Shown: positions 24,384 to 46,697 of the stretch, piece by piece
How positions within the stretch are numbered: the first letter of the stretch is position 1
Layout: each line of letters opens with the position of its first letter
Source of the DNA: a bacterium
Lineage (GTDB): Bacteria > Patescibacteriota > CPR2 > UBA1875 > CAIMLA01
DNA length: 64,000 nt
Direction of reading: 5' to 3'
Assembly (NCBI GenBank): GCA_037129835.1
Contig: JBAXUE010000003.1
Location: 18,793-82,792, forward strand
Position numbers and translations under genes: made by a program
Notes under the pieces: model-generated
Databases searched by the model: none
Told to the model about the DNA's origin: nothing
Seen by the model: the letters and a program-made list of their open reading frames with translations, nothing else

Positions 24384-24388
24384 TATTT

Positions 24389-26415: not shown

Positions 26416-27023
26416 TATTCGGCCTCAAAACTATTGCCAAAACGAAGCCAGGTTCCGCGGCCATAGTTTGGATAGCTTTTAATCATCACGCAGGCACCAG
26501 CGTTGCCCTCGATGGTGTACAGTCTGGTGCCGACAATATTATAGACTATTCCAATGTGATGATCTTTCTGGATCATATCCCCAGGTTTTGGAATTTTTGT
26601 AGTGATATCGTATTTATATTTTAAGCTGTCCATCATGCCATTCGCTGCACAGGTATGAGGAAAGCTTGCACCAGCATGCCCGTATACCCACCCGGCAAAG
26701 CCTGCACACCAAGGCCAATCACTAGGAGAAAGACCACAGGCGTATTTCACATATTTTTGTGGGTCACCCTCATTTTGTTGAGATCCGGTGCCACACACCT
26801 TGGCGTCAAACTCCTTTTGGGCTTCGTCTATTATCTTTTGCCTAATCCCCGTAAGATTAGTCGGCGGCGTAAAAGCTCCTGGGATAATAGCAGTGGGAGA
26901 AAAATATGGGCAAGAAAAAAAGTCGACAGCACGAACCAGCTTGGGGTTAATTGAAATAATAACGATTAACAACAGTGTAGAAAAGATGACAGCAACCAGG
27001 TGTGTAGTTTTTTTGTTATTCAA
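26415..27023 (-). CDS. Secreted CHAP-domain peptidoglycan amidase/endopeptidase
   Basis: Signal peptide then FFSCPYFSP motif; Cys in WCAGFAGWVYGHAG and His in DHHIGIVYNIVGTRLYTIEGNAG are CHAP-like. Confidence 0.55.
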   Translation of the reverse strand: MNNKKTTHLVAVIFSTLLLIVIISINPKLVRAVDFFSCPYFSPTAIIPGAFTPPTNLTGIRQKIIDEAQKEFDAKVCGTGSQQNEGDPQKYVKYACGLSPSDWPWCAGFAGWVYGHAGASFPHTCAANGMMDSLKYKYDITTKIPKPGDMIQKDHHIGIVYNIVGTRLYTIEGNAGACVMIKSYPNYGRGTWLRFGNSFEAE

Positions 27024-27639
27024 CGGTATACTCTATCTGCAACTTGTTGTAGTCTTTGTCTGTGGCTAGTAGCCACTCTTCTGCTTCTTTGGCGTAAGTG
27101 TCTCGTTTACTAGAGTCGCCGGCCAATACTAGGGTGATTAATATATTCGGTTTTGAATCTTGATTTGCATAATTAATATCTATTCTATAATTACTTTTAT
27201 AATAAGGTAGATTGGCAAGAATGGGGTAATCCTTAACTAGCTTGTCTAATTTTTCTTGGGACTTTGTTTCCATTGCGTATTCAACATCGTATAGATCTTC
27301 TGTGGAAAGCTTGTCGTATGTAATGGTTGTCGTATCTGCATCGAGGGCGACCTCAACTGTTTGAGTCTTATTATTCGCCACATCGAAAGACGTTGTCTTA
27401 CTTATAAAAAGATCCTGAGAAAACACTATGTTATAATGGCCGGAGCTTAAATAGATTGTTTGGTCGCCAGTATATTTTTTATCTCCGATCGAATAGGAAA
27501 CCCTTTTAGGGGAAACTACAAACTTGACATTTGCACCCCCGCGCAGGGCATAGTTTACCCCAAATAAAAGAATTAAAAGCAAAGCAAAAGATCCCGCTAT
27601 AAACAAGTATAAGGTAATTTCATTTTTTGATATATTCAC
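27016..27639 (-). CDS. Membrane-anchored PEGA-domain protein (paralog of 30628..31371)
   Basis: N-terminal TM; VVSPKRVSYSIGDKKYTGDQTIYLSSGHYNIVFSQDLF is PEGA-like; C-terminal LANLPYYKSNYRIDINYANQDS is shared with 30628..31371. Confidence 0.45.
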   Translation of the reverse strand: MNISKNEITLYLFIAGSFALLLILLFGVNYALRGGANVKFVVSPKRVSYSIGDKKYTGDQTIYLSSGHYNIVFSQDLFISKTTSFDVANNKTQTVEVALDADTTTITYDKLSTEDLYDVEYAMETKSQEKLDKLVKDYPILANLPYYKSNYRIDINYANQDSKPNILITLVLAGDSSKRDTYAKEAEEWLLATDKDYNKLQIEYTVE

Positions 27640-27648
27640 TCGACCTCC

Positions 27649-28296
27649 TTATTTTAACCGAACAGCCCAAGACATATCAGAATACCACGACTTACACTTT
27701 GGTCTGTAGGCATGTTTACCGATTGATGCGCCCAAAACCCCACCAGGACACCCACAGTAGCCAGGGCCGACATAAAGCATGGCATGTGAGCCGTAGTCTA
27801 CATTAAATAGCATATCGCCTGGCTGTAGTTGTTTTGTGCTAGTTACGGGATGAATAATTTGATATTTATCAGAATGTTTATTGTAGTAGTTTTTAATAGC
27901 TTCGCCCGCTAGCGTATTTACTAGTGCGCTTGGATCTACTCCTGAATGCCTAAGAGCCGTGACCACGAAACCGTAACAGTCGGTCACTCCCTTTTCTTTT
28001 TCGTGATCGTAAAGCGAAGGATTTTTTATATATTCACAGCCTTTTGCAATAAGGGCAGTCGCACCAGCTCCAGGAGTGCCGGGCAGTCCGGGAGTGACAC
28101 CACCCGTCCCTCCGCCGCCTGTTCCGCCGCCACCCGTACCGGGGGTAACCACTGGGGATACGTAAATGGGACAATCGAGGAAGTTAATTGCCCTTGTTGT
28201 TTTGGGATAGGCAATAAAACAACAGAGAACTAAAAGAACTGCCGTGAATATTATTAAGGATTGTTTTCGTTTATTTTTCAATCTCATACCTTTCAA
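27649..28296 (-). CDS. Secreted NlpC/P60-like cell-wall endopeptidase with Gly-rich linker
   Basis: Signal peptide then INFLDCPIYVSP, linker GTGGGGTGGGGTGG, Cys in TDCYGFVVTAL and His in SHAMLYVG; C-terminal KCKSWYSDMSWAVRLK shared with 31349..32047. Confidence 0.5.
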   Translation of the reverse strand: MKGMRLKNKRKQSLIIFTAVLLVLCCFIAYPKTTRAINFLDCPIYVSPVVTPGTGGGGTGGGGTGGVTPGLPGTPGAGATALIAKGCEYIKNPSLYDHEKEKGVTDCYGFVVTALRHSGVDPSALVNTLAGEAIKNYYNKHSDKYQIIHPVTSTKQLQPGDMLFNVDYGSHAMLYVGPGYCGCPGGVLGASIGKHAYRPKCKSWYSDMSWAVRLK

Positions 28297-28966
28297 TTGT
28301 GGTTAGTCCAGTGGCAAGATTAATAATATCTAAAGGAATTCCCAGCTCATTTAATAAGGCACTATCGTAATCCGTGCCGGGGCCGTATACCACCCTCCAA
28401 ATACCTTCTTCCTTTTTTTGGATTATCATCGCATCTTCCACTTCTTCGTAGGACGCCTTTATCCACGATATGGCCCAGTCGTTAATAATTTTTTTATTTA
28501 CCGACTCAAAAGGAATATCTACATTGCCTTTTATGTTGTCATCTATTTGCTGAAAATCATTTTGATATTCATTTAGCATTTCTTTCTCTTTGAAAATAAT
28601 GAGGTTCGTTTTTTCTAGGGCTTGTTTATAGTTATTTTGTTTAATAAGGTCTGTTGCTTCTGATAAATCTTTATCAAAATATTCAGGATTGTAATTTATT
28701 TCAGCTAAGTCATTTTTAATACCTGCACGAATGACAGCTATAGAGTAGTTAATACATGTGGACTCATTGTCTTCACAGTTTGGGTATTCTTCTGAGGGCG
28801 TCCATTTATCATTACTAGCTAGTTCTTTAAAGGTTCTCGCATCGTAGGCCGTTGTAGATTGTTGAACCAGATATATAAGGCCAATAATAACAAGTAGCGC
28901 CAAGGACAAGCCCGAAATAGCCACGATATAAAGTGTTTTTTTGTCTTTTATTAGATTGGTTTCCAA
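28271..28966 (-). CDS. N-terminally anchored extracellular protein, unknown function
   Basis: 231 aa, one N-terminal TM (LYIVAISGLSLALLVIIGLIYLV), acidic ectodomain; overlaps neighbours (operonic). Confidence 0.5.
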   Translation of the reverse strand: METNLIKDKKTLYIVAISGLSLALLVIIGLIYLVQQSTTAYDARTFKELASNDKWTPSEEYPNCEDNESTCINYSIAVIRAGIKNDLAEINYNPEYFDKDLSEATDLIKQNNYKQALEKTNLIIFKEKEMLNEYQNDFQQIDDNIKGNVDIPFESVNKKIINDWAISWIKASYEEVEDAMIIQKKEEGIWRVVYGPGTDYDSALLNELGIPLDIINLATGLTTIERYEIEK

Positions 28967-28999
28967 AGTTGCCCCCTTATTTTTTTAGATAAGACCCAT

Positions 29000-29533
29000 T
29001 CACTCCACTAACCCTAGGTCAAAAACCTTAAAAGCGTTTCCCTCGTCCTTTATTATTGTTATCCAATAATTTTGTTTTAAAGAATTTTTTTCTGTAGAGC
29101 TTGATAGCGTTGTATCAACACTTACTAAAAGGCACATATGCCCACCCTCTTGTTCCTCGCAGTATTCTACCGGCCCAGATGCGGCAGAGCTGTCTGTTAT
29201 AGGAGATACGAGGTTTACGTTTTCATATTCCAAGACAGGGCTGTCTTTTGTAAAATATTTTAGCAACCTTTCTTTGCGGGATTCTGTTGTTTCAGAAATT
29301 GATTGTTGGGAATACTCTTCTATTGCTTTCTGCGCCAATAATGTCTGATTGTTTAGGCTCCATTCCTCCCGCTTGTCCGCTACGCTATTCGTTATTTGCT
29401 TATCGTTTTTCTTATTTGTTGTTACTTTTTCATTTGTGGAATTAATATATAGCACGAAACCTATAAATATTAATATAGTGCCAGCGATAATAGATATAAG
29501 CAGCATTTTATTTTTATTCATCTTAACCTCCAC
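29000..29533 (-). CDS. N-terminally anchored extracellular protein, unknown function
   Basis: 177 aa, N-terminal TM (MLLISIIAGTILIFIGFVLYI), Cys-containing ectodomain. Confidence 0.5.
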   Translation of the reverse strand: MEVKMNKNKMLLISIIAGTILIFIGFVLYINSTNEKVTTNKKNDKQITNSVADKREEWSLNNQTLLAQKAIEEYSQQSISETTESRKERLLKYFTKDSPVLEYENVNLVSPITDSSAASGPVEYCEEQEGGHMCLLVSVDTTLSSSTEKNSLKQNYWITIIKDEGNAFKVFDLGLVE

Positions 29534-30641
29534 TCATTGACCAATGCCAATCCTCTGCAGGATAATTAATAAAACCATATGTTGCACCATTTTTCTTTAA
29601 CCATTTATATACAGGATCTCCCTTGCTTACTAACGATCCTTTATAAGTAAAGTCAATAGCAAGGCCTCTTTCGTGATTAGAGTTTCCTGGTTTGGCTACC
29701 TTACCTCCACAATTTGGTGAGCAACCGGCATATATACCTTGTTGCGTTTCGTAACTGCGAAACCCGCTCCCGCTTAAGGAGACGCCGTCTGCCTTTGCTG
29801 CCGCAATCATTTCCACTGTTCTTTGAGAAATTAGGGCGTTAACCACCCCTACTGCAGTGCCACACTTTCGGAAAGTAAATCCGTTCGTCGGGTGCTTATA
29901 AGTCCCCTTGTCAGAAGAACCTGAGGCATATGCGACACTTGAATAATCCGTTCCATTCTTTAAGCTCCACCCACTTCCCTTACTGATGGTATTTGCTGGC
30001 TTTGCAGTGCCAGAACCACCACCAACACTTGTTGTGGTTGTTGGTGTTGCGGCCAGCTTGCATTTTGGTCTCGAGAAACCGGCTAGATCAGAGCGCCCAT
30101 AAGAAGAGATTCTAACATATGCCCCCGTATATGGAGCCTCTATCATTTTGCCACCACCGATTACCATTCCTACGTGGTGGATAGGACTCCCGAAAAACAC
30201 TAAATCCCCGGGTAGCTCGCTTCCTTTACTGACCTTTGGCTGACCAGAGTATTGGTCACCAGAATAATGCGGCAATGAAACACCTGCCTTTTTATACGCA
30301 TATAGCATGAGCCCCGAGCAATCAAAGCTATTGGGGCCAGCGGCTGCCCAAACGTAAGGCTTCCCTATTTGTTTCTGAGCTTCGGCTACGGCGATGGCGG
30401 CACAGGCATTCGGTGTACCGCTGATAGTCCCCCCACCAGCACCACCACCCGTCCCACCACCAATACCCGGAATCGTTGGCAAGGTTATGGGCTTGATATA
30501 AATAGGACACTCCCAAAAGGAGATAGCCATTGTTTTAATGGGTATTATGAATAACAGACCAAGGCTCACAAACAATAGTCCAAACAAAAGAAATACTTTT
30601 CTTGGAACCAGCCTCTTTATTTTATTGTTATTCCGCGACAT
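29523..30641 (-). CDS. Bifunctional secreted peptidoglycan hydrolase: NlpC/P60 endopeptidase + VanY/M15 D,D-carboxypeptidase-like domain
   Basis: Signal peptide then ISFWECPIYIKP, Gly linker GGGTGGGAGGGT, NlpC/P60 Cys FDCSGLMLYAY and His HHVGMVIGGG; C-terminal SGFRSYETQQ and NSNHERGLAIDF match M15 Zn-peptidase motifs. Confidence 0.6.
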   Translation of the reverse strand: MSRNNNKIKRLVPRKVFLLFGLLFVSLGLLFIIPIKTMAISFWECPIYIKPITLPTIPGIGGGTGGGAGGGTISGTPNACAAIAVAEAQKQIGKPYVWAAAGPNSFDCSGLMLYAYKKAGVSLPHYSGDQYSGQPKVSKGSELPGDLVFFGSPIHHVGMVIGGGKMIEAPYTGAYVRISSYGRSDLAGFSRPKCKLAATPTTTTSVGGGSGTAKPANTISKGSGWSLKNGTDYSSVAYASGSSDKGTYKHPTNGFTFRKCGTAVGVVNALISQRTVEMIAAAKADGVSLSGSGFRSYETQQGIYAGCSPNCGGKVAKPGNSNHERGLAIDFTYKGSLVSKGDPVYKWLKKNGATYGFINYPAEDWHWSMSGG

Positions 30642-31371
30642 ACCTCACCTGTAGGTTTGCATAGTTAGGATCTTCTGTTTTTAGCCAATCTTCCGCTGCT
30701 TGTTTAAAGGGGCCTTCTAGTTCGGTTGCGCCTTTTGTCAAAAGAGTTATCTCTATAAATGGCAAGGCTGAGTCATCGTTTTCGTAGCTTATGTCAATAT
30801 GATAGTCGCCGGTATAGTATGGTAGACTGCCAAGTATGGGGTATGAAGAAACTAGGTCGGCCAACTCTTTATCCCCTTCTGCCTCTGATATTTTGTCTAT
30901 AGTATTTTGTTCTTCGATAGACAACTCCTCATAATAAGCGTTGGCGGCCTCGTCACTCGTTTGTTCGTTGAAATAATCTACAACCTTTTTGTCTGCCGCA
31001 GATAGATCGTCATATTTAATTTTATTGCTACTTTTTAAGCTTAGAGGAATCAGGTCTACCGCAATTGTTTGATCTTTATTGCGTTCTGCTATTATCTCAA
31101 TATTCTTGTCGTTAAATAAGTCTCTTTTAAAAATGACGTTGTAATGTCCAGGAGGAACTACGATTGTTTGGTTCCCAGTATATTTTTTCTTATTTATTGT
31201 GTATGTAGCATCTGCGGGACTAATCGCGATATAGATTTTTGTAGTATTGCCTACAAAAAACAATAAACTGATTCCTAGTGCCAAAATAATAAATGTTGCA
31301 AACGCTATTAGGGCATATAAAATATTCTTTTTTTTCTGTTCTTCCATCTTAATTACCCTCTTCAAAATCAC
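30628..31371 (-). CDS. Membrane-anchored PEGA-domain protein (paralog of 27016..27639)
   Basis: N-terminal TM; IAISPADATYTINKKKYTGNQTIVVPPGHYNVIFKRDLF PEGA-like; C-terminal LGSLPYYTGDYHIDISYENDDS. Confidence 0.45.
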   Translation of the reverse strand: MILKRVIKMEEQKKKNILYALIAFATFIILALGISLLFFVGNTTKIYIAISPADATYTINKKKYTGNQTIVVPPGHYNVIFKRDLFNDKNIEIIAERNKDQTIAVDLIPLSLKSSNKIKYDDLSAADKKVVDYFNEQTSDEAANAYYEELSIEEQNTIDKISEAEGDKELADLVSSYPILGSLPYYTGDYHIDISYENDDSALPFIEITLLTKGATELEGPFKQAAEDWLKTEDPNYANLQVRYVAE

Positions 31372-32047
31372 TTAGTTTGGCCATAGCTAGCAATTCCTGT
31401 ATTTCGTCATCGCTGGGGCTTTCTACTAATTGGCCCACAGCGGGTTTAAGTCTTACGACTGTTGTCATTTTCTTTGTCCAGCTGCTGCACTTTGGGCCAT
31501 GTCCACCAAGTGAGGCTGAAATTACGCCACCCTTACAGCCACAATATTTTGAACCAACAAACATGCTGGCGTGCGAGTTTGATGACTTGGTGCTAAAAAG
31601 CATGTCCCCAGGCATCAACTTCTTGGTGCTTTTTATCCCCTTTATGACCTCATATTTATCAGTGTTTTTGCTGAAATATTTTGGAGCTTGATATGCCTGT
31701 CCCGAATCTGGAACCTTGGTGTCTACTTTGGTTCGTCGAAGCGCAGTAATCAGCATACCCCAGCAGTCTGTAAAGTCCTTGGACTTGACCTTTTCTTTTT
31801 TATAGAGCGACGAGCTATTTTTATAATCACACACCTTTTTTTTAAGTGTTTCTGCATCTATATAATATTCTTGATTACAACTTCCCGGCGGAGATGTAAA
31901 CATGGGGCAGGGAATAGCCTCTGCAAATGCCACACCCCCCCATATTTGTCTGTCCACAACATTGAAAGCGCAGATGAATAATGCCAAAATCGATGCGGCT
32001 AGAATAATAATAGTTAGTCTTGTCTTTTTTCTGATATTTTTCCTCAT
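31349..32047 (-). CDS. Secreted NlpC/P60-like endopeptidase (paralog of 27649..28296)
   Basis: Likely start at MRKNIRKK with GGGGAGG 4 nt upstream (track start 32071); AIPCPMFTSP after the signal, Cys in TDCWGMLITAL, His in SHASMFVG, C-terminal KCSSWTKKMTTVVRLK. Confidence 0.5.
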   Translation of the reverse strand: MRKNIRKKTRLTIIILAASILALFICAFNVVDRQIWGGVAFAEAIPCPMFTSPPGSCNQEYYIDAETLKKKVCDYKNSSSLYKKEKVKSKDFTDCWGMLITALRRTKVDTKVPDSGQAYQAPKYFSKNTDKYEVIKGIKSTKKLMPGDMLFSTKSSNSHASMFVGSKYCGCKGGVISASLGGHGPKCSSWTKKMTTVVRLKPAVGQLVESPSDDEIQELLAMAKLSDFEEGN

Positions 32048-32251
32048 TTTTCCTCCCCAAGTATCACTCAAATAACATTATATATGGATACAAGTCAAAA
32101 TAATACTATTGAGCATGTGTTAATGTTTGTCCTTTGGCGAAATGGTTTCCTCGATTCTTGCTGGGCTATACGACTGATAATGTTTAGATAATGATGCGTT
32201 GAAGCATAAAAGGAGGCTGTTTTTAAATTAAGGCCCCCGCTACTCGGTTGT

Positions 32252-32776
32252 TTAGCCGGCCTTGCCTCCAGTGTTTGCGGTCATATCAAAATAAACGGTT
32301 TCGAGATTAGTTTTGTTTATTATTGAGTTATTAATATAATCCTTAGCTTCGTTCTTATATTTTTCGAAAGGCAGCTGATAAACAGTAATGTTGCAGATGT
32401 TACCACTTTCCATTTCTGTGCAATCTACGCTGTATTCCGACCCAATATAAGGGAGAAGATAGCTCTTTTTTAACTCATAAGTCTTGTTTCGGGTTTTGTT
32501 GGTCACTTCCAGTGTCGAAATCTCTGTCAGATAATCGTCTTTAGATATTTCGATTTTATATTTACCGGTCTTTAGTTCTATGGTTATCGGTGAGTTTCCG
32601 ACCACGGCACCATCGATTTTTATCTTTGCTGACCCAGGCACTGTGTTTATTGTTATTTTAGGTTTTCCGCTAAGCGCACTTGCAACCAGGGTAAGGACCA
32701 ATATTACTAGAAACAGAATTATAATTGCTATAATTATTTTAGTTTTTGTTTCTAGGTTAGAAATTATGGTGTACAT
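32252..32776 (-). CDS. Membrane-anchored PEGA-domain protein
   Basis: N-terminal TM then TINTVPGSAKIKIDGAVVGNSPITIELKTGKYKIEISKDDYL, a close match to the PEGA pattern. Confidence 0.45.
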   Translation of the reverse strand: MYTIISNLETKTKIIIAIIILFLVILVLTLVASALSGKPKITINTVPGSAKIKIDGAVVGNSPITIELKTGKYKIEISKDDYLTEISTLEVTNKTRNKTYELKKSYLLPYIGSEYSVDCTEMESGNICNITVYQLPFEKYKNEAKDYINNSIINKTNLETVYFDMTANTGGKAG

Positions 32777-34740
32777 GTTATTGCGCTCCCAGCATTGTTA
32801 TTAATTTTCGTTATCCACTGCTTGATCTCATTTATATAGGTTGCGGTATCGTTTTGCGTTGGGGGTGCATATTCCATCATCATGTCCGGTATCGTTTTTA
32901 TTCCCATCCCTTTTATATATACTCTTTTAATATAAACGGAAATATTGTCGCTACCAGTAAGGCTATCGTCCCAGGAATTCCACTTGTAATAAATCGAGCC
33001 GCTTGGGTGGGGCTGGCTACCGCCTGCCTGTCTCCCAAAAGAATTATGGCTGCCCTTACTTGTCCCACTTCCAACGCTTCCAAATTGAGTTTCTTTTCTG
33101 GCTAATGATACTAGTAAAGCAGGATTAATATTTGAGGCCTTGCCACTGGCCAAGAAAAGGGCGCCCTTACCGCTTAACGGCTTCCCGCTACCGATAAATT
33201 TATTAAGGGCCGCAATATATTTTGCTTCATCAGAAATATTTGGAAAAGCAACCGAAATGCAGGCGGTTGTTGAGGCAGTACCACCGGGTGTAGGAGTCGT
33301 GGGCCCGGCCGGCGTAGAGGGTGACGGAGTAGACGGAGTAGAAGGAGCAGGGGCCGCGGTACCCGTCTTGGGGCTATCAAAAACCTTACATGTTCCCGTT
33401 AGTGTTTCGGGCAATGTGCCAGGAACGTATTCCCATTCTTCCCTGTCGGGCGGGTTTGCTGGAAAGGCGGCCTTCATGTAAGTGACAAATTCCTTAATGT
33501 GACCACTATTTTCATCCCCCCACCCTGGAGTTTTGGGGCGAAGAGGTATAAGTTCCGGCCTAGTGAGCCTGAAGAAGGTCGCTGCCCCCACATCGTTGGT
33601 TCCAAGAAAGTTGTTCAATACGTCCATAGCTTTTTCAAAAGGCAGTAGTGGTAATTTCGCGAGACCCTTAAATGCCTCCCATCCAGCTACCAATATGTTT
33701 GTCCTTAGTTGTCTCCAAAATCTTGCGATATCACCCTCATAGTCTTCGAGAATATATTTATCAGTAAACGGCTCATATAGGAACCAAATCTTGCTTGCAA
33801 GATCGTCTATTTTTCGCCACTGTCCGATATAGACAATATTTCTATAAGGATCAATATCTGCAGGGGACATATCGTTTTTATTTGCATCTTGTAGAGCAAT
33901 ACGGATTTTACCAGCACGGCAACGGATGGCCTCTATCGCACATTTATGATAACAAACAGGGTCGATTTCTGGACCTGTCAGAGTTATTACGGTGCATTTA
34001 AGATAGCACTCTGGGATCTGGTCTGCGATGTTAGTTTCCTTGTAGTCTATCGCTGCCAATATCTCTGGCGTTGTTTTGTTATATTTTTCTTTTTCGCCAG
34101 TCGGGCTGCCGTTTTCGTCTACCACTGAATAGGTTTTTCCAAGATCCCAATCTTTGCCGCTAGAATCCTTATAGCCATTCGCTGCCTGTACGTAAGCGTC
34201 ATAGTAGGTAATAAACCGTTGCATGGCTGCAGTCGGGACGTCTGCTTTTGGGCAGCTGTCTCCCCAGCCCCCTGCGATGAATGAAACTGACACAAAAACA
34301 GTCCCTATTACCATGGCTAGGGGCAAGAAAGCACAACTTGCAACGCAAGCAAGAGCGGCCAAAGCTTCCAAAAAGGCCTTTATCAACCGCTTTATCATTC
34401 TTTTCCAGAATTCTTTATCAAAAGCAAGCTTAAGTAGTTCCAGGTCTGCCATCACGTCAGTTCCGACTGATTCAATAGCTCTTGCACCGGCCTGAACACC
34501 CTTGACTACCTTTTTTGCATCTTCAACACCCTCTTTGATCTTTTGGCCAGTCTTTGAGTTCCCGGCAGCATCAATGGCCCCTTCTTTGCCCTTTTTTACA
34601 GCATATCCAATAGGGTCCTTATTAATTTCGCCTATTTTGTCTTTTACACCACCACCGATTTTATCAGCACCAGCTTTAACACCACTGCCAACCTTGTCAG
34701 CACCGGCTTTTGCCAGTTTTCCTAAGTTCTCCAGGCCCAC
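32764..34740 (-). CDS. PrgK-like large membrane-anchored extracellular protein: N-terminal GADK repeats, TM, Cys-rich ectodomain, Pro/Thr linker, C-terminal putative muramidase-like domain
   Basis: 658 aa; repeats GADKVGSGVKAGADKIGGGVKDKIG; TM at about aa 130-165; linker TAAPAPSTPSTPSPSTPAGPTTPTPGG; C-terminal NINPALLVSLARKETQFG loosely resembles a glucosaminidase/lysozyme core; directly downstream of VirB4. Confidence 0.35.
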   Translation of the reverse strand: MGLENLGKLAKAGADKVGSGVKAGADKIGGGVKDKIGEINKDPIGYAVKKGKEGAIDAAGNSKTGQKIKEGVEDAKKVVKGVQAGARAIESVGTDVMADLELLKLAFDKEFWKRMIKRLIKAFLEALAALACVASCAFLPLAMVIGTVFVSVSFIAGGWGDSCPKADVPTAAMQRFITYYDAYVQAANGYKDSSGKDWDLGKTYSVVDENGSPTGEKEKYNKTTPEILAAIDYKETNIADQIPECYLKCTVITLTGPEIDPVCYHKCAIEAIRCRAGKIRIALQDANKNDMSPADIDPYRNIVYIGQWRKIDDLASKIWFLYEPFTDKYILEDYEGDIARFWRQLRTNILVAGWEAFKGLAKLPLLPFEKAMDVLNNFLGTNDVGAATFFRLTRPELIPLRPKTPGWGDENSGHIKEFVTYMKAAFPANPPDREEWEYVPGTLPETLTGTCKVFDSPKTGTAAPAPSTPSTPSPSTPAGPTTPTPGGTASTTACISVAFPNISDEAKYIAALNKFIGSGKPLSGKGALFLASGKASNINPALLVSLARKETQFGSVGSGTSKGSHNSFGRQAGGSQPHPSGSIYYKWNSWDDSLTGSDNISVYIKRVYIKGMGIKTIPDMMMEYAPPTQNDTATYINEIKQWITKINNNAGSAITCTP

Positions 34741-36516
34741 CTATTCCGCCTCTTCTTTTTTCAGCGCCTTCTCTGGGTTTGTGTTCGCCAACAGGTTTTC
34801 TTGGTAACTTGGGATTATTTGCATAGCAACATGCCGAAGCCCAGCAATAAACAATCCCTCACCAACACCAGTAGTTACTAAGTAGTCTCTCTCTGTTTCT
34901 GTTAGTTTCCACGCCTCTTTAACATAATCAACTTGCGCCGGATGCTGCCGGAGGAGTATCGCCATAGAAGAGTTTTGTGCGATTGCGCGACCGTATTCGG
35001 AGCCAAAAAAGTCGGCTGCATCTTGAGCAATACAGGTAAGGCCAAGATAATATTTACGTCCTCTTTTTGCTAGCGAGAAAAGGAATTGTGCCGATTCAGG
35101 ATATTTCATAAGTACCCAGGCTTCATCAACAAACAAGAGGCGCTTTTTCTTTTCGCTTTTGATTTTATTCCAGATAAAGTTAAGTATTGAATACATTGCT
35201 ATCGGTCTCAGCTCATCCTCAAGGTCCCTGATAGAGAAAACCACCAAACGATTTTGCATACTTACATTGGATTGCTGATTCATAAGACCCGAGTATGTAC
35301 CATTTGTGTATTTATCTAGTCGAACCGCGATACTTTCACCGCCGTTGATGCTCTCCAAAACTTTTTGAAGATCATGAAATGTAGGTGGTTGTAATCCGTG
35401 AGTTTTTGGGTCTTCGGTAATACCCTTGGATGCGTATGCCTCGATGATTGCTTTGTCTAAAACATTGCTTTCTTCTGGAGAAATATTTCCAACCATGACT
35501 CGCACTAAACCAGCTAGCATTATTGTATTGCTACGAATGGACTCTATTGCCTCTTTTTCGTCATTTATCAAGGGAAGATCAAACGGATTTACGTGCTGTT
35601 CTGAATTAATGTTTATACTCAAGTAGCTGCCACCAAAGGCCAAAGAGAGCTCTTCATATTCATTTTCCGGATCAATTACAAGAATATCGGTGCCAAGAAT
35701 AAGAGACCTTATTAGCTCTAGCTTTACAGTATAGCTTTTCCCGGCTCCAGACATAGCGATAACAACAGAATTATAATTTGGTAAACTAAAGCGATCAAAA
35801 ATAATTAAACTATTGTTTATTTTGTTAATACCGTAAAACACCCCTGTATCTTGAGATAATGTGTCGGACAAGAATGGGAAAAAGGTGGAGATGGCCTCGG
35901 TGTCTAGGTTTCTTCCTATGGATATTTCCTCTCTATCAAGCGGTAGGGTCGAGTTGAACCCTTCTTTGCCTTGATAGAGTGTCCTTTTTGAATACACCAA
36001 GAGCTCATTAAGCATTTTTTCTACTCGATCAACACTGTCATTTAGTGATTCCATCGTTTCTGCGTATATGGTGAGATAGAATCCTACTTTAAATATTTTT
36101 GTCTGACCCGTAGCGATTTTTTCACGTAGATTCTCTACGTCCGCATATTTTGCCTCAAGGCCAGGATCCCTAACGAGACCTCTCTGGGCATTCATATCTA
36201 GAGTCGACTCTAACTGAGTTGACTTTCCTCTTAGTCTTTGGGCAATAGCTGCGTTGTCTTGAGGGTAGATGTGGATAGAAACATCAAGGGGTAGGTCGGT
36301 ATTAATGGTTTGTGAGAGCCATCCCGGGAAGAGCATCCTTGGGTAGTCGTATACAAATAGAGTTGTAAGATATACCTGGCCAAGCTTCAGGTGATCTACT
36401 GCTATTTCCAAAGCAGAAGGAGCCAGCAAGTCTCTTACACTTGTAAGCCCTTGTTGGAATACCTGCATTGCTCGAGTCTGTCTTAGTTCGTCTGCGCTTT
36501 TATTCTCTTGAAACAT
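34741..36516 (-). CDS. virB4: Type IV secretion ATPase VirB4/TrbE/PrgJ family (C-terminal two-thirds)
   Basis: Walker A VIAMSGAGKSYT, DPENEY, Walker B RLLFVDEAWVLM; 591 aa; Walker A at about aa 245, so the usual ~200-aa N-terminal domain is missing from this ORF. Confidence 0.7.
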   Translation of the reverse strand: MFQENKSADELRQTRAMQVFQQGLTSVRDLLAPSALEIAVDHLKLGQVYLTTLFVYDYPRMLFPGWLSQTINTDLPLDVSIHIYPQDNAAIAQRLRGKSTQLESTLDMNAQRGLVRDPGLEAKYADVENLREKIATGQTKIFKVGFYLTIYAETMESLNDSVDRVEKMLNELLVYSKRTLYQGKEGFNSTLPLDREEISIGRNLDTEAISTFFPFLSDTLSQDTGVFYGINKINNSLIIFDRFSLPNYNSVVIAMSGAGKSYTVKLELIRSLILGTDILVIDPENEYEELSLAFGGSYLSININSEQHVNPFDLPLINDEKEAIESIRSNTIMLAGLVRVMVGNISPEESNVLDKAIIEAYASKGITEDPKTHGLQPPTFHDLQKVLESINGGESIAVRLDKYTNGTYSGLMNQQSNVSMQNRLVVFSIRDLEDELRPIAMYSILNFIWNKIKSEKKKRLLFVDEAWVLMKYPESAQFLFSLAKRGRKYYLGLTCIAQDAADFFGSEYGRAIAQNSSMAILLRQHPAQVDYVKEAWKLTETERDYLVTTGVGEGLFIAGLRHVAMQIIPSYQENLLANTNPEKALKKEEAE

Positions 36517-37174
36517 CTGGTGTTTCTCCTACAAACTCTTTTGTTACTACGGATCTTTCTAAGGAAGACGCATCTGACATATAGCCAAACTTATCAATAC
36601 CTGGGTTGTATGAAATGTAATAGAGCTCTATTAGCCCTTGAGTATCAAGGGGGATACAGTTGATACCAATATTTTTTAAACCCATTTCTACGACAGAAGT
36701 TCTTTGATTAAGGGTGTTTATAGCCTTGTCGGTAGTTTTTGATATTAACTCCGTGTTCGGCTGCTCTTTTTGGCCAGCAATATATGGGAAGTATGGTACA
36801 ACGATGTAAAACTTTTTATCCATTAGGTTCGCTCTTTTTGTAATTTCTTCTAAGAAATTATGATAATCCTGAACGTGCTGAGCGGTGTAGTCGTCGGTGG
36901 CTTTTTTTGCGATATCTGAAATATTTTTTAAGTACTTTGCGAGATTAACCCTTCTAGATTGAACAAGAATTTGCATTGGAAAATCTACGGCATTGATCAG
37001 GTCCTGGAATGCCATTATTAGGCTTTCTTGCTCCCCCTCTGATCGGAGAGCGAAATTCAAGCTAGAAGACATGACAACTTTTCTCATTGACTTGTCTTTT
37101 AAATACACCACACCGTCGTGTATTTTATCTATTTCTAAAAAGCTTTGGGTGCTCGGTGCTTTTGGTTTAGCCAT
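36500..37174 (-). CDS. Candidate detached N-terminal domain of VirB4 (224 aa), overlapping the ATPase ORF by 17 nt in another frame
   Basis: 224 + 591 aa = 815 aa, a typical full VirB4 length; no TM; position directly upstream of virB4. Could be a real split, a frameshift or a sequencing error. Confidence 0.3.
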   Translation of the reverse strand: MAKPKAPSTQSFLEIDKIHDGVVYLKDKSMRKVVMSSSLNFALRSEGEQESLIMAFQDLINAVDFPMQILVQSRRVNLAKYLKNISDIAKKATDDYTAQHVQDYHNFLEEITKRANLMDKKFYIVVPYFPYIAGQKEQPNTELISKTTDKAINTLNQRTSVVEMGLKNIGINCIPLDTQGLIELYYISYNPGIDKFGYMSDASSLERSVVTKEFVGETPDVSRE

Positions 37175-37875
37175 TACTTTTTACCTCCAGGAGACTCTAG
37201 GTCTGCAAATTTATAGGCAGAGAGGTCTGGCAGATTACTGTTTTGACCCTTATTGGGATTTACTGTGGCAACTTGTGAAATAGCCGGTTCTCTGTTTTTT
37301 GCTACATTTTCGGCGGCATCATTCAGTGCCTGCGTTATCTCTTTGTTTCTGCTCGGAGTTTCGTTCAGTGCTATTTCTGCCGAAATATAGTCATCTGTCA
37401 TTTCTTCAATCCCACCGTCCAGAAGCGCCGCCATTTTTTTTATATGCGACAGCTCTTGGCGAACGCCTTTTTTGTTTTCAATGCCCGAGTCGAATGGTTG
37501 TCCAGTATCAGACTTACTCTTCAGTGTGACCTTTTCTGTTAATTTATTTAATGAGTCAAGTGCCCCGCCAGCATCTAGAGATTCTTTTGCCCATAATCGC
37601 AACTTTTCACCAGTATAGTACTGGTATAAAGGGAAGATATAATAATCAAGCGGCCTAGAATTGTATGGCACAAAGGCGAGCGAAAAAAATAGGGCTACAG
37701 GGAAAATAGCGGCGAGAACACCAACAAATATCGGTAGTTTGGCAGCGGTGAATAGCGTGTAAAATCCGAAGCCAAAACCAATCCCTGCAAGCATAAAGCC
37801 AAATTGTTTTAGGGTTAGCGGACCAAGGACTTGATCTGCAACCTCCACATCTTGTGGAACGTTATAGTAATTCAT
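37174..37875 (-). CDS. VirB3/PrgI-like small inner-membrane T4SS component with C-terminal soluble extension
   Basis: Two adjacent TM helices near the N-terminus (LTLKQFGFMLAGIGFGFGFYTLFTAAKLPIFVGVLAAIFPVALFFSLAFVPY) immediately upstream of VirB4, as for VirB3/PrgI/TcpE. Confidence 0.3.
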   Translation of the reverse strand: MNYYNVPQDVEVADQVLGPLTLKQFGFMLAGIGFGFGFYTLFTAAKLPIFVGVLAAIFPVALFFSLAFVPYNSRPLDYYIFPLYQYYTGEKLRLWAKESLDAGGALDSLNKLTEKVTLKSKSDTGQPFDSGIENKKGVRQELSHIKKMAALLDGGIEEMTDDYISAEIALNETPSRNKEITQALNDAAENVAKNREPAISQVATVNPNKGQNSNLPDLSAYKFADLESPGGKK

Positions 37876-37911: not shown

Positions 37912-40329
37912 TTATAAATCATCAATTTGCTTGTTTATTGCAGTTGCCTTATCTTGTTCTTCCACTGTTGCGTGTGCTGGCCCCGCAGCCCTTGTTTCGT
38001 CAATGGTCGCTCTTTTCTCAGCTTCTTCGAACTTTGCCTGTTTGGCTGCTGCAGCCTTTTCTGTTGCGGTTGCCGCCGCCGCCGCATGTGCCGCCGCCGC
38101 TGCTGTTGCTGCCTTTGCGGCATCAATTTGTGCCCTGTTAATAGGCTCTGCTTCTTCTTGTGCCTTAGAAACTTCTTCTATCATCGCTTCTGTTTGGGCT
38201 GCGCTCTTGCTCTTTTCTCTTTTAGCTGATTTTTCAAAGGCGCCAAGAACCTTCTTGCTATCGGCAGTTACCTTGCCGGATCGATCCATGTGTGTAGAAG
38301 CGGCCGCAACTCTAGTATTGATTGTTTCTGTTTGTTCTTGACTAAATTGGCTGAAGTCGGTTACCTGGCTGAAGTCAACTAGGGCCATATGCTCTGGGTT
38401 GATTTTGCCGGTGTTGTCTGTAAATGTCTTTGAAGCATCGAAAATAATATTGTCTGCTTCTGCTCCGGTTTGCAGATCCCCTGGGTTGCTTGCTCGTAAT
38501 TTTTCTGCTCGTCTCTTCTCTGCGGCAAAGTTTTTACCCATGTTTCCAGCCAAAAGATCTTTGTAGTCTTTTCCGTTTGCTCTGATGACCGCAGAGGTTA
38601 CTCTGCTATCGCCCATGTCGCTAGCCTTTCTTTGTAGCCGTCCATTTTTAGCAGTCCATCTGCTTACCTTGCTTCTCTCTTCATCGGTAAGTACTGGGCC
38701 ACCATGATGTGAATTTTCCTCTTTTATGAACAGCTCTTGCATGTCCTTTGTTTTAAAGTCTTTGTAATATTCATCCTTTATTGGCACATCTGTTATTACG
38801 CCGTGTCTATCATATTCATATCCAGCCTCGGTTTCTTTCCCCATATGTGCAAACGCTTGATCACCTTTAAACTTGTAGTCACCATCTTTGTCTGTCAGTA
38901 CTCTGAGCCTCTCTCTGCCCATTGGATCAAAACTAGCTTCTTTGGTAACAAGTTCTTCGTCTCCGGCTTGTCTTTTCTCGGCGTCACCGTCATTAACTCC
39001 CAGAACTATCGCCGAAGCCTTACCAAGAATTCTTTTGCCAAAGTTATCAGAGTTGGCAGCCGCCTCTCCCCCAAGTCCACTATGGACTCTTTCATTCCAA
39101 GGTATACCGCTTTTATTCATAGCTTTTGACCCTTCCTTCATTACCATTCCGCCCAATGACTTTGCCTTGTTTGTTACCATGCCTTGCCCAGCCTTACCTA
39201 TGGCAGCAGCAGCCCCTCCGAGAAATTTGAGAGGTAAAAATATAGCGGCTATGGTAGCAACCAGGCCTGCAAAAAGAAGGTAATATGAAACCGGGTCAAA
39301 AATTTCTATAATAGATTTCGGTGCCCCGCCAGCCATAACATCAATTCCACCCCCCATTCCAAAGCTCTTGGAATTATCTGTTGCCCATGGATATTTTCCG
39401 CCAGTCACAATCTCATCTTGTATAAATTGTTTCCCTTTTTGTGACACCAGGGTCTTAGCAGTCCCCACAAGGCTAGTTTTAGAAGCGCCAAATGTAATCA
39501 ATTGGCCAACAAATAGGACTAATACAAATATTGGTAGGAAAAAGACCCACTTCGTAAATTCCTTCCACCAAGTGCTATATACGCTTTTTGTCCAAGGCAA
39601 CACGTTACAAGCAAAGGCCAGGGGCGCCAGGATGATGCACAGCATCACTACTACCGCCCTGAAAGCAAGCATGGCGCAAGCGCAAATCATAATCAGTAAG
39701 GCTATTATAGCGACAAATATTGAAAGGAAAGCGACCACCACGTTACTCCCTGTACCAATTCCTGAATATGTGGCCATTAGCACTTCAGTCATACTTTGAG
39801 TGCCGATTATTTGATTAACCATAACGCTTGCAAGGTCGTAAATCACAGCAGCAAGAGGACGACTAATAATCATCATAAAGATTGTCAGGGCAAGCTTGGG
39901 AACCATCGCCGAAAGTGTCCATTCCTTTAAGCCAACATTAAAGGTGGTTGCAAAGATGGCGACTAGCAGTGTGACTCCAAAAATAGAATAAGCTATAGTG
40001 TCGGTTGATACTACTAGTTGTTGATACATTGTGTTGGTTGGGTCGGTGCCTACGGTAATTACCATTTTAGACATGAACATAGCGAGGGATAACAGAACAA
40101 AGCCGAAGCCGTAAATCGCTTGAGCAATAGAGGTGAACATGGCGGTAAAAAAGTCGACGATCCAGTCAAGGGGATTTAGAGAGAATCTAGCAGCATAGGA
40201 AAGGCTTGGTGCTAGTAGCACGGTTGCTGCTCCTGCATATACATAGCCACGTTTATAAAATAAGCTTTTTATTTTTGCCCTTGTACGGGACACACTTTGA
40301 GCGATACCCATATAATCCCCCCCAAACAA
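37912..40329 (-). CDS. VirB6/TrbL/PrgH-like polytopic T4SS channel protein with long charged, Ala-rich C-terminal tail
   Basis: 805 aa; about 8 TM helices in the first ~400 aa, then a hydrophilic domain ending in AAKAATAAAAAHAAAAATATEKAAAAKQ; upstream of the VirB3-like and VirB4 genes. Confidence 0.4.
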   Translation of the reverse strand: MFGGDYMGIAQSVSRTRAKIKSLFYKRGYVYAGAATVLLAPSLSYAARFSLNPLDWIVDFFTAMFTSIAQAIYGFGFVLLSLAMFMSKMVITVGTDPTNTMYQQLVVSTDTIAYSIFGVTLLVAIFATTFNVGLKEWTLSAMVPKLALTIFMMIISRPLAAVIYDLASVMVNQIIGTQSMTEVLMATYSGIGTGSNVVVAFLSIFVAIIALLIMICACAMLAFRAVVVMLCIILAPLAFACNVLPWTKSVYSTWWKEFTKWVFFLPIFVLVLFVGQLITFGASKTSLVGTAKTLVSQKGKQFIQDEIVTGGKYPWATDNSKSFGMGGGIDVMAGGAPKSIIEIFDPVSYYLLFAGLVATIAAIFLPLKFLGGAAAAIGKAGQGMVTNKAKSLGGMVMKEGSKAMNKSGIPWNERVHSGLGGEAAANSDNFGKRILGKASAIVLGVNDGDAEKRQAGDEELVTKEASFDPMGRERLRVLTDKDGDYKFKGDQAFAHMGKETEAGYEYDRHGVITDVPIKDEYYKDFKTKDMQELFIKEENSHHGGPVLTDEERSKVSRWTAKNGRLQRKASDMGDSRVTSAVIRANGKDYKDLLAGNMGKNFAAEKRRAEKLRASNPGDLQTGAEADNIIFDASKTFTDNTGKINPEHMALVDFSQVTDFSQFSQEQTETINTRVAAASTHMDRSGKVTADSKKVLGAFEKSAKREKSKSAAQTEAMIEEVSKAQEEAEPINRAQIDAAKAATAAAAAHAAAAATATEKAAAAKQAKFEEAEKRATIDETRAAGPAHATVEEQDKATAINKQIDDL

Positions 40330-40440
40330 TTAATAATCATTAACAATAGTTTAAAACATATTACACTTTCAAGCAATAAAAAAGATGCTTCATGTGGAAG
40401 CATCTTGCGAAGTAATCTTTCGAACCCCTGGTTTGTTTCT

Positions 40441-40797
40441 TTAAAATCGCCCGATGATAAAACCAATAAGACTTACTAGTAGATAAGAGCCAGCAACGAT
40501 AGCTATACCGATAAGGCCAGAGGTAAGTATCTTTTTTGCGGTTGTTGACCTTGTTGGGTCTCCAGCAGAAAGCATGTACATTATACCGCCATAAATAAGG
40601 ACCAGTACGGCAATAGTAAATGTAACCCCCCATACTATGTCATAGATGCTAGTAAGAAAGTGTTGTAGCGTACTGCTACCAAACTGTGTGGTTACTACTG
40701 AAATAGCTTTCGCCATGGTTGTCATTGGTAAAAACAGAGCCGTTATTCCGAGGCCAAGCCCAAAACCGTTTATCATTTTTTGTTTATTCATATCCAC
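40441..40797 (-). CDS. VirB2/TrbC-like pilin-type protein 1 (signal peptide + two hydrophobic helices around a short polar loop)
   Basis: 118 aa; ...VLVLIYGGIMYMLSAGDPTRSTTAKKILTSGLIGIAIVAGSYLLV; paralogous to the next two ORFs. Confidence 0.45.
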   Translation of the reverse strand: MDMNKQKMINGFGLGLGITALFLPMTTMAKAISVVTTQFGSSTLQHFLTSIYDIVWGVTFTIAVLVLIYGGIMYMLSAGDPTRSTTAKKILTSGLIGIAIVAGSYLLVSLIGFIIGRF

Positions 40798-40849
40798 TCC
40801 TTATTATAAAAATATTTTAACATGTGCAGACCCATAGTCAACATCTTTT

Positions 40850-41248
40850 TTATGTAAACAGCGTTGCGAGATACCCAGCGAAGCTCACTAATAGTTTAGA
40901 TCCAGCGATAACAGCAATAGCTATAAAGATATATGTGAGATATTTTTTGGCCGTTGTCGCTCTGTTTGCGTCACCCGCCGAGGTCATATACATAATTCCC
41001 GCCATCACTACCGCCAGCGTGGCTGCAGTAAGAGTGACTCCAAGAAAAATATCAAAAATGTTACTCGTTATGCATGTGACCATTTCTACTCCAGAAATAC
41101 CAGGAGTAGATAGTTCGGTGCAACCCTTATAGAAGGGATTGGAAGAACCGGGGTCTCTGGCAGTCTTGTATGCGTGAGCAATTGTGCCCAACGGAAATAT
41201 TGAAAGAAAGACGGCTATAACAATAAGTAAATTGATTCGTCTTTTCAT
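40850..41248 (-). CDS. VirB2/TrbC-like pilin-type protein 2
   Basis: ...LAVVMAGIMYMTSAGDANRATTAKKYLTYIFIAIAVIAGSKLLV aligns with protein 1; start probably at the internal MKRRINLL (track start 41284 overlaps the upstream gene by 40 nt). Confidence 0.45.
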   Translation of the reverse strand: MKRRINLLIVIAVFLSIFPLGTIAHAYKTARDPGSSNPFYKGCTELSTPGISGVEMVTCITSNIFDIFLGVTLTAATLAVVMAGIMYMTSAGDANRATTAKKYLTYIFIAIAVIAGSKLLVSFAGYLATLFT

Positions 41249-41655
41249 TTGAAGTTGATGCCCATAAAAGAGAGGATAATCCAAAATGCTGACATCGCGA
41301 ATGCCCCCGTAAACGCTGCAATTATCATTTTTTTACCCTGCTCATACCTTGCGGCGTTACCAATGGAGACGAACATTGTGACCCCACCCAATATCATCAT
41401 TACAAGCGACAGGGTATATAAGATTGGGGCGGCATGACCGGCCATTTTACCAAGAGCTTGTGGCGCGTTGTCTGTATCATCAAATAAGCCGTGATTTAAT
41501 AGACTTCCAGCTAATATATTCGCGGGATAAGTAATAATAAAAGAAAATATTAAGGCATAAACAACATATGATTTTTTTTGCAATTGTTTAAATAGTTTTG
41601 TAATGGTGTGCACAGTCGAAACCCCCCTTGATATAAAAAGATTACACAACACCAT
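41245..41655 (-). CDS. VirB2/TrbC-like pilin-type protein 3 (more divergent)
   Basis: 136 aa; ...LVMMILGGVTMFVSIGNAARYEQGKKMIIAAFTGAFAMSAFWIILSF has the same topology; first gene of the minus-strand array, AT-rich promoter region upstream. Confidence 0.4.
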   Translation of the reverse strand: MVLCNLFISRGVSTVHTITKLFKQLQKKSYVVYALIFSFIITYPANILAGSLLNHGLFDDTDNAPQALGKMAGHAAPILYTLSLVMMILGGVTMFVSIGNAARYEQGKKMIIAAFTGAFAMSAFWIILSFMGINFK

Positions 41656-41676
41656 ACAATATTACAAGTATTTTTA

Positions 41677-42189
41677 TTGTTTATTAATACTATTTATCTG
41701 AAAGATTTTCTGTATTATAATTTACACATAATGACATTTGAAATTGAAAAATATTATAAATACAAAAAAGGCCCAATCTGGTATCTAGTCGTAGTGTCGG
41801 TTTTTTCTTTTTTTTCTTTTCGCGCCTATATGGCAAATGATTATTATCAGCTATTTCTTTATGCACTCGTCGCATCTGGTTTATTGGCCTATATATTAAT
41901 TAAGCCTTTGAAAAATAAAGTTGAAATAACAGAAAGCTCTATACATATCGATAAAAATGTTTTTCTCTTTGTTAACATGGACGGCTACATCCTTCTCGAG
42001 GACAAAGAAGTCTATATGTTTCATTTATTTATGAAGAGCAAGTGGAAGCCCACTATCAAGCTGACCTTTCTAAAGGAGCAGAAAAAAGATGTTGATAAAG
42101 TTGACACTTTTCTAGAAAAGAAGCTTAAAGTTTTGGAAAACGAAAAAGAGCCCTCGATGGATTACCTTCAAAGGCTCTTTAGGTTCTAG
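41677..42189 (+). CDS. Hypothetical small membrane protein, 2 TM + C-terminal PH-like (YcxB-like) domain
   Basis: 170 aa, Lys-rich, two hydrophobic helices (WYLVVVSVFSFFSF..., LFLYALVASGLLAYILI) followed by a soluble domain; divergent from the pilin operon. Confidence 0.3.
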   Translation: MFINTIYLKDFLYYNLHIMTFEIEKYYKYKKGPIWYLVVVSVFSFFSFRAYMANDYYQLFLYALVASGLLAYILIKPLKNKVEITESSIHIDKNVFLFVNMDGYILLEDKEVYMFHLFMKSKWKPTIKLTFLKEQKKDVDKVDTFLEKKLKVLENEKEPSMDYLQRLFRF

Positions 42190-44200: not shown

Positions 44201-44217
44201 ATTTCTCTTTTGAAGGT

Positions 44218-46104: not shown

Positions 46105-46110
46105 ATATAT

Positions 46111-46674: not shown

Positions 46675-46697
46675 TTTTTCTCCTAGATATGATCTAT

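Follow-up and report, generated by a model that had tools for sequence, protein, structure and literature searches.

What is encoded by the three small genes that open a type IV secretion system (T4SS) gene cluster, and why would a bacterium keep three of them side by side? The question is raised by the interval 40441-41655 of the 64-kb window analyzed here (the window being the whole stretch of DNA examined, 64,000 nucleotides of contig JBAXUE010000003.1), which holds three minus-strand open reading frames (ORFs), referred to below as pilin genes A, B and C and, by their position in the array, as slots 3, 2 and 1. The answer favored here, with a probability of about 0.75, is that A, B and C are pilin-like subunits of the VirB2 superfamily belonging to a patescibacterial T4SS, that each is specialized for its slot, and that together they probably build a tube that crosses the cell wall toward a host cell.

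Family membership and topology of the three proteins

All three proteins match the Pfam family PF18895 (T4SS_pilin) collinearly over profile positions 2-70 of 71, with scores of 34.8 bits for A, 25.3 bits for B and 24.9 bits for C (E ~2e-5 for both B and C), the gathering cut-off being 26.6 bits. They are all counted as members because a profile made from 48 further members of the family, from which A, B and C had been removed along with their three nearest kin, gives 75 bits to B and 57 bits to C, as well as 79 bits to A; none of the other ORFs in the 64-kb window scores with this profile. The TrbC/VirB2 family PF04956, with a gathering cut-off of 27.9 bits, matches A (26.5 bits, E 8e-6) and B (21.6 bits, E 2.5e-4) and gives no match to C, scores that place the relation at superfamily level rather than at that of membership. 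When 5.8 billion proteins were searched with a profile, 56 relatives were recovered; all except one carry a precomputed PF18895 assignment, and two are named "pilin" by NCBI. When homologues were scanned singly, PF18895 was found in 54 of 54 and TrbC in 16 of 54 (E <= 1e-3, best 1e-10). The family itself is large: HMMER returned 105,740 matches at E <= 1e-3 and 50,690 at E <= 1e-10 from 1.84 billion cluster representatives. A PDB sequence-profile search with the family alignment retrieved only transmembrane helices of MacB and RNase-kappa, which were judged spurious.

The three proteins are real paralogues of one another. A and B share 54% identity over the 70-amino-acid (aa) hairpin core (z = 24 against shuffled sequences), and the A-C and B-C pairs share ~22% over 55 aa (z = 8 and 4.8, respectively). 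The initial annotation of this interval, which described three tandem paralogous VirB2/TrbC-like pilin genes and proposed TrbC/VirB2 (PF04956) and TraA as the families to look for, is thus upheld, with PF18895 matching all three proteins and PF04956 matching A and B below its cut-off.

Hydropathy profiles of A, B and C display an N-terminal hydrophobic signal segment followed by two hydrophobic stretches. In agreement with these profiles, AlphaFold2 models built with the family alignment predict a signal helix (residues 4-29 in A and 4-40 in C) and a hairpin of two ~35-residue helices linked by a 4-residue turn (Table 1), with mean confidence (pLDDT) values of 77 for A and 81 for C. The loop bears a net charge of +2 in each of the three proteins, and because it is basic it would lie in the cytoplasm, by the positive-inside rule, leaving both termini outside. 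A loop inside and both termini outside is the topology of VirB2. On these predictions, A, B and C share that topology: behind the signal peptide, a short basic loop connects the two helices of a hairpin. The signal or anchor region and the two hydrophobic helices around a polar loop that had been noted initially agree with the hydropathy of all three proteins and with the models of A and C, which show a two-helix hairpin and not a single transmembrane segment, and the loops quoted at that time occur verbatim (GIMYMLSAGDPTRSTTAKK in A, GIMYMTSAGDANRATTAKK in B and GGVTMFVSIGNAARYEQGKK in C).

Signal peptidase sites are predicted after TMAKA in A (TMAKA/ISVV), after TIAHA in B (TIAHA/YKTARD) and after ANILA in C (ANILA/GSLLNHGLFDDTD, that is, ILA/GSLL). 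Read from the sequence, AKA/I and AHA/Y are sites of the A-x-A type, and C has ILA/G; mature proteins would accordingly begin with ISVVTTQF (A), YKTARDPG (B) and GSLLNHGL (C). The mature N-terminal segment of B contains two conserved cysteines.

Start codons were refined by reading the sequence. For C, the GTG at 41613 lies 7 nt past AAGGGGGG and is most likely the start, since the alternative ATG at 41655 lacks a ribosome-binding site; the mature protein would be identical from either codon, and the NCBI call for the identical C protein is also 122 aa long. The ATG of gene B overlaps the TGA stop of gene C (ATGA), an arrangement that suggests translational coupling of B to C. Protein A has an identical copy in NCBI/ENA/JGI/Logan. 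Genetic code table 11 is the right one here: under it, non-overlapping ORFs of at least 150 aa span 90% of the window, and the alternative code of some Gracilibacteria, in which UGA encodes glycine, was rejected given this coverage and the fact that TGA ends 5 of these 56 ORFs.

Slot-wise conservation and expression units

Two closer relatives of the locus, L058 and L059, were found via protein A, and both show the same layout: an HSP20 gene, a divergent small membrane protein, three pilins, and then the genes for VirB6-like, PrgI, TrsD-like and VirB4 proteins. The order pilins-VirB6-like-PrgI-TrsD-like-VirB4 is shared by L005, L058 and L059, and the same genes with the pilin array reversed are present in L006. 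When VirB4-linked loci were searched with the family profile, pilins were detected within 10 kb in only 4; the rest may have none, may carry them at another site or may have copies that diverge too far for detection.

Comparison of the arrays reveals that conservation follows the slot. Orthologues in L058 and L059 are 48-50% identical in slot 1 (C), 55-56% in slot 2 (B) and 55-59% in slot 3 (A), compared with 15-37% over full length between slots. The predicted mature N-terminal segment, the part that VirB2-type pili expose, follows the same rule: it is only 10-15% identical between slots, and within a slot it is as conserved as the hairpin, and more so for C, with 65% of its positions invariant across the three species in C, 36% in B and 43% in A. 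Each of the first two slots has a motif of its own, GSLLNHGLFDDTD in slot 1 and DPGxSNPFYxGC...C, with its two cysteines, in slot 2. Similarly, the four-gene arrays of the more distant L005 and L006 are orthologous one to one (66, 52, 43 and 57% identity), despite the reversal of the L006 array. Taken together, the comparisons indicate that A, B and C are old, individually maintained paralogues conserved slot by slot.

DNA repeats longer than 27 nt linking the A, B and C copies were not found, so that there is no substrate for gene conversion, and the genes were ruled out as gene-conversion cassettes on this ground. The slot-wise conserved N-termini and the one-to-one arrays favor a division of labor over antigenic variation or copy switching. 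The triplication had initially been taken to suggest antigenic or functional diversification; of these two, the functional one fits the slot-wise conservation, N-terminus included, and the absence of linking repeats, and the antigenic one does not.

Gene A appears to be equipped for expression on its own. The spacer between B and A contains a promoter-like site with an extended -10 element (Table 1), and this site, together with TAAGGAGTGG, is invariant in the window, L058 and L059, though the A proteins are only 55-59% identical. Between A and the VirB6-like gene lies an intrinsic-terminator-like hairpin that persists in L058 and L059; in the latter, two of its base pairs have changed in a compensatory way. 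Because of its own conserved promoter-like site, its strong ribosome-binding site and its own terminator, A would form an expression unit that is separate and strong, which makes it the likely bulk subunit, with C and B made in smaller, linked amounts. Additionally, the three-species alignment shows a conserved stretch (TTGCTTGAA ... ATATGnTTTAAACTA) at 40312-40371 (minus strand), immediately past the terminator hairpin, with a G-rich ribosome-binding site ahead of the VirB6-like gene; here lies a candidate promoter for the machinery operon.

The T4SS cluster, its surroundings and known systems

Downstream of the array, the same strand carries the VirB6-like, PrgI, TrsD-like and VirB4 genes within 5 kb of the pilin genes, in line with the initial statement that the pilin genes head a T4SS array. 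The VirB6-like protein has no direct match in Pfam, NCBIfam or PDB sequences; it can be aligned (E 4e-7) to that part of a syntenic L049 protein which matches TrbL_4, and the position of its gene is kept in L005, L006, L058 and L059. Orthologues of the TrsD-like protein bear PF26593 (TraC-like), and a protein of this type is described as TrsD in PMC12102498. A frameshifted VirB4 can be ruled out, since the gene, which overlaps the VirB4 start by 17 nt, is kept as a separate gene in L005, L006, L057 and L059. VirB4 is 55-57% identical to its counterparts in metagenome-assembled genomes (MAGs) of Patescibacteria, the closest among 185,579 species genomes, followed by MAGs labeled Peribacteria, Peregrinibacteria and Gracilibacteria at ~50% and by Bacillota at 23-29%; these relatives place the organism in the Patescibacteria, by identity to the nearest sequences rather than by a tree.

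Table 1. Coordinates of the pilin genes, candidate regulatory sites and T4SS cluster in the window, and of pilin-like genes in monoderm loci (last four lines)
Feature	Position	Strand	Description or basis
Pilin gene C (slot 1)	41245..41613	-	122 aa, GTG start; predicted hairpin residues 50-82 / 87-121
Pilin gene B (slot 2)	40850..41248	-	132 aa, ATG start
Pilin gene A (slot 3)	40441..40791	-	116 aa; predicted hairpin residues 39-74 / 79-115
Promoter-like site upstream of gene C	41714..41742	-	TTCAAA-17-TATAAT; consensus match only
Promoter-like site, extended -10, in B-A spacer	40814..40841	-	TTGACT-16-TGnTAAAAT; consensus scan and conservation
Shine-Dalgarno sequence of gene A	40797..40802	-	AAGGAG, 5 nt before ATG; read from sequence
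Intrinsic-terminator-like hairpin between A and VirB6-like gene	40372..40406	-	10-bp stem, 5-nt loop and T tract
VirB6/TrbL-like polytopic membrane protein	37912..40311	-	799 aa, long hydrophilic C-terminal half; transitive alignment and position
PrgI-family (VirB3-like) protein	37174..37875	-	PF12666, 39.4 bits
TrsD-like protein	36500..37174	-	224 aa, like N-terminal part of VirB4; NCBIfam VirB4_plasma positions 103-282, E 1e-8
VirB4-type ATPase	34741..36516	-	PF19044, PF12846, DUF87
Downstream co-oriented block	25753..34740	-	Wall hydrolases, TcpC-like, others
Glucosaminidase-domain protein	32764-34740	-	
TcpC-like/VirB8-like protein	29000-29533	-	
Bacilli or Clostridia pilin-like genes ahead of VirB6-like, L049	6150-7041		
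Same, L050	5168-7254		
Same, L054	1376-1783		
Same, L056	2905-3243		

The co-oriented block downstream of VirB4 also encodes a PEGA protein, three NlpC/P60 proteins (one with VanY), a CHAP protein, an Ig-like protein and three proteins without a family. Wall-hydrolase-type proteins are unusually numerous at 26415-34740 (minus strand), with the glucosaminidase, the three NlpC/P60 and the CHAP proteins lying there along with the PEGA and Ig-like ones. Among the 54 window ORFs scanned, no member of a coupling-protein (T4CP) or relaxase family and no VirB5-like tip protein was found. dnaA is located at 21525-23036, and the dnaA-dnaN-recF genes (21525-25471) lie ~280 bp past the end of the T4SS block. 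As judged from gene content, the locus is a chromosomal, origin-proximal, relaxase-less T4SS of the monoderm type, as described for Patescibacteria in PMC12102498, according to which these systems are MPF-FATA-derived, usually without relaxase and often near dnaA.

Several observations concern the surroundings of the cluster. On the other side of dnaA-dnaN-recF lie yidC and a KhpB/Jag-like gene; a search for DnaA boxes gave 34 scattered matches against 18 expected, and the cumulative GC skew, which tracks gene strand, is lowest near 40-42 kb (region 38000-42000) rather than at dnaA. The G+C content is ~0.35 over most of 16-26 kb, falling to 0.32 in single 1-kb windows. Divergent from the pilin array, at 41677-42189 (plus strand), is a gene for a 170-aa predicted membrane protein without family match, whose counterparts in the same position and orientation, also without family, measure 154 aa in L058 and L059 and 152 aa in L001 and L003. 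Just upstream of the array, 42926-45888 encodes a PaaX/Cas2-like regulator, a ComF-like phosphoribosyltransferase and a PilB-type (T2SSE) ATPase, so that type IV pilus/competence genes adjoin the T4SS. Farther away, two genes at 1995-3236 and 13330-15285 (both minus strand), one of them fused to a subtilase, share a C-terminal DUF5648 and flank a cluster of sugar-nucleotide and glycosyltransferase genes, and three tRNA-Ser genes (CGA, TGA, GCT) and one tRNA-Arg gene (GCG) lie within ~6 kb at 46015-46774 and 51917-52326 (minus strand).

The statement in the initial annotation that Gram-positive-type T4SSs normally lack VirB2 pilins holds as the textbook view (PMC12857230; PMC12102498), but the Patescibacteria are the published exception to it. 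Gram-positive conjugative systems are generally described as lacking a pilus in PMC10633639 (Wang et al., 2023), and a 2025 review (PMC12857230) treats Patescibacteria as the one exception among monoderm systems, with pilus formation as a possibility; a 2024 perspective (PMC11665869) calls the role of their T4SS completely unknown. In Quinonero-Coronel et al. (2025; PMC12102498), VirB2-like pilins are reported from 1,948 Patescibacteria assemblies, with 383 assemblies holding 441 arrays of 2-11 pilin genes, a within-array identity of 25% on average and 54% at most, and the greatest abundance in Microgenomatia and Saccharimonadia. A series of pilins within the T4SS cluster (SEML1_0006-0019 region) is likewise reported, together with the T4SS itself, as essential in Ca. 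Southlakia epibionticum ML1 (PMC10633639; PMC12857230).

The window locus resembles these arrays in Pfam family (PF18895), in the tandem arrangement beside VirB6/VirB3/TrsD/VirB4, and in its chromosomal position near dnaA with no relaxase or coupling protein nearby. The identities between its paralogues (15-37% over full length, 54% for the A-B core) also fit the values given in PMC12102498. Because tandem VirB2-like arrays are already a described hallmark of Patescibacteria, the locus is a further example of them and not a new class of system. It differs from the published arrays in lineage, its VirB4 being nearest to unclassified Patescibacteria MAGs and to MAGs labeled Peregrinibacteria/Gracilibacteria, and in having three pilin copies instead of the six of S. 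epibionticum. What the present comparison contributes is the slot-wise orthology, the conserved promoter-like site and terminator that A has to itself, and relatives in which several hairpins are fused (see below). Neither the orthology nor the separate transcription unit of the last copy is mentioned in the excerpts of PMC12102498 and PMC10633639, nor are fused pilins in those of PMC12102498.

Other known systems resemble the locus in part. With the diderm TrbC/VirB2 pilins (PF04956; A. tumefaciens VirB2, PDB 8cue/8exh; RP4 TrbC) it shares the signal peptide and hairpin, ~70-90 mature residues, the basic inter-helix loop, the location of the gene at the head of the T4SS operon and a weak, collinear profile similarity. 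In contrast to those systems, its host is a monoderm without outer membrane, and no VirB5, VirB7, VirB9 or VirB10 was found in the window; its pilins have no C-terminal extension to trim and there is no sign of a cyclase; and it has three divergent, probably co-expressed copies instead of a single gene, with scores below the family cut-off and a pilus that is putative. Signal peptide and hairpin are also combined in pilin-like proteins of integrative and conjugative elements (ICEs) of Mollicutes and Bacilli (NF045849, Mbov_0395 family) and in Clostridia DUF3852 proteins. A and B weakly match NCBIfam NF045849, the "pilin-like conjugal transfer protein" of Mycoplasma ICEs (E 8e-5 and 1e-3). In L049 and L050, two loci of uncultured Bacilli found via VirB4, two small signal-peptide-plus-hairpin proteins with weak similarity to PF18895 (E 2e-5 to 6e-3) precede VirB6-like, VirB3-like, TrsD-like and VirB4 proteins, and DUF3852 proteins of Clostridia loci weakly match TrbC (E 3e-4 and 3e-3). 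All these cross-matches of NF045849, PF18895 and DUF3852/TrbC fall below curated cut-offs. Given these weak matches, the pilin-like gene may have arrived together with the monoderm system instead of being borrowed from diderms. The Mollicutes, Bacilli and Clostridia elements are mobile; the window locus belongs to a chromosomal core region. Finally, the effector T4SSs of Bartonella and Anaplasma phagocytophilum also have several divergent tandem VirB2 copies and a host-dependent lifestyle; their paralogues are read as antigenic or host-interaction variants, whereas the window copies are slot-conserved across species and have no recombination substrate.

What the three pilins may build

The proposed mechanism starts with Sec-dependent signal peptides, which would be removed by signal peptidase I after a site of the A-x-A type, leaving mature proteins as helical hairpins in the membrane, both ends outside and the basic loop (+2) inside. 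The VirB4 ATPase, with the TrsD-like, PrgI/VirB3 and VirB6-like proteins, would lift the hairpins out of the membrane, and these would stack into a tube that crosses the cell wall, reaches the host cell bearing the bacterium and might let cargo pass. The co-encoded hydrolases would open the cell wall locally for this tube. The three paralogues would not be interchangeable and would have separate jobs: A, which also gives the best family match, is probably the abundant building block or major subunit, and B, with its disulfide-capable N-terminal segment, and C, with its conserved acidic N-terminus, are probably specialized subunits of low copy number.

A different reading of the array is that A, B and C are merely unrelated small membrane proteins (holin-like proteins, immunity proteins or chance hydrophobic ORFs) that resemble pilins by composition. 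Short two-helix proteins do draw spurious matches, such as the MacB helices in the PDB search and weak hits to MgtC and DUF families, and lytic enzymes are encoded nearby, but the full-length collinear PF18895 matches of all three proteins, the 57-79 bits from an independent profile with which no other window ORF scores, and the synteny with VirB6/VirB3/VirB4 kept across species leave this reading effectively refuted. A phage holin or lysis function was rejected as well: PHROGs gave nothing below E 0.03 and no holin, and A, B and C have predicted signal peptides. The copies could, on the other hand, be major pilins able to replace one another, with exposed parts that change rapidly or are exchanged, giving antigenic or host-range variation as proposed for Bartonella/Anaplasma VirB2 and suggested for patescibacterial arrays in PMC12102498. 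This would fit the low identity between copies and the fact that they diverge most in the mature N-terminal, presumably exposed segment; yet the copies have one-to-one positional orthologues in L058 and L059, this same segment is 36-65% invariant over the three species, the four-gene arrays of L005 and L006 are also orthologous one to one, repeats that could feed gene conversion are absent, and B, being apparently coupled translationally to C, would be co-expressed with it and not switched. Variation of this kind is therefore improbable as the reason for the three copies.

More serious, though still rather unlikely, is the suggestion that the hairpins are not extruded at all and form a ring or short stalk in or above the membrane that lines the T4SS channel, without a filament. 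It draws its strength from relatives in which hairpins are fused. L043 (214-1197, minus strand) encodes a patescibacterial protein of 327 aa in which one signal peptide precedes three hairpin modules connected by polar linkers, and in a search of the full library 150 of the 150 top matches have at least two modules (most of P0057-P0205; examples are P0057, P0066 and P0084). P0057 has six modules in 552 aa, and P0084, of 1,775 aa, has 13 at a domain E < 1e-3 and 17 stretches by HMMER; no internal signal peptides were found in these fused proteins. Two-module proteins also make up 8 of the 56 nearest homologues. Fusion is topologically allowed because each hairpin starts and finishes outside the membrane, and it implies that different hairpins stand side by side in the final assembly. 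A covalent chain of 2 to at least 13 hairpins would suit a fixed membrane assembly better than stepwise extraction, and it is awkward for a model in which subunits are extracted one by one. Other points weigh against a wall-crossing tube of VirB2-type subunits too: no T4SS pilus in any Patescibacterium is reported in PMC12857230 or PMC11665869, the scan for a VirB5-like tip protein was negative, B and C stop 1-2 bits short of the PF18895 cut-off, none of the three proteins attains that of TrbC, an hhalign comparison with PDB-verified VirB2 is collinear and weak (P 0.007, probability 5%; the template, a single sequence, is too thin to settle the matter), and the promoter and terminator calls are consensus matches backed by conservation. 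Against a channel ring, in turn, the sole characterized relatives, TrbC/VirB2, are pilus subunits; with both hairpin ends outside, fused modules could also be stacked into a tube as a strand linked beforehand; a bulk polymer subunit fits the expression unit of A, which is separate and apparently strong; and the set of hydrolases points to a wall-crossing structure.

The reading of A, B and C as slot-specialized subunits of a wall-crossing tube remains the favored one, and the fused relatives allow a more specific version of it to be offered tentatively, with a probability well below even. The slots might be non-redundant parts of one heteromeric assembly, with A as the bulk and with B and C in the base, tip or adhesin roles of VirB5 and surface adhesins, and pre-linked hairpins might perhaps form a wall-spanning tube or ring instead of a classical homopolymeric pilus.

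The ultrasmall Patescibacteria (CPR), which spend their lives attached to other microbes, account for much of bacterial diversity, and in the one species tested (PMC10633639) the T4SS including its pilin array is essential. For this group, the locus offers a compact and clean case, with three slot-conserved pilins of which one is probably expressed separately, and fewer models of what these pilins build stay plausible once slot conservation and fused relatives are taken into account. If the heteromeric arrangement of pre-linked hairpins were true, it would represent, in the only bacterial group whose survival depends on a T4SS, a new assembly principle for T4SS surface structures.

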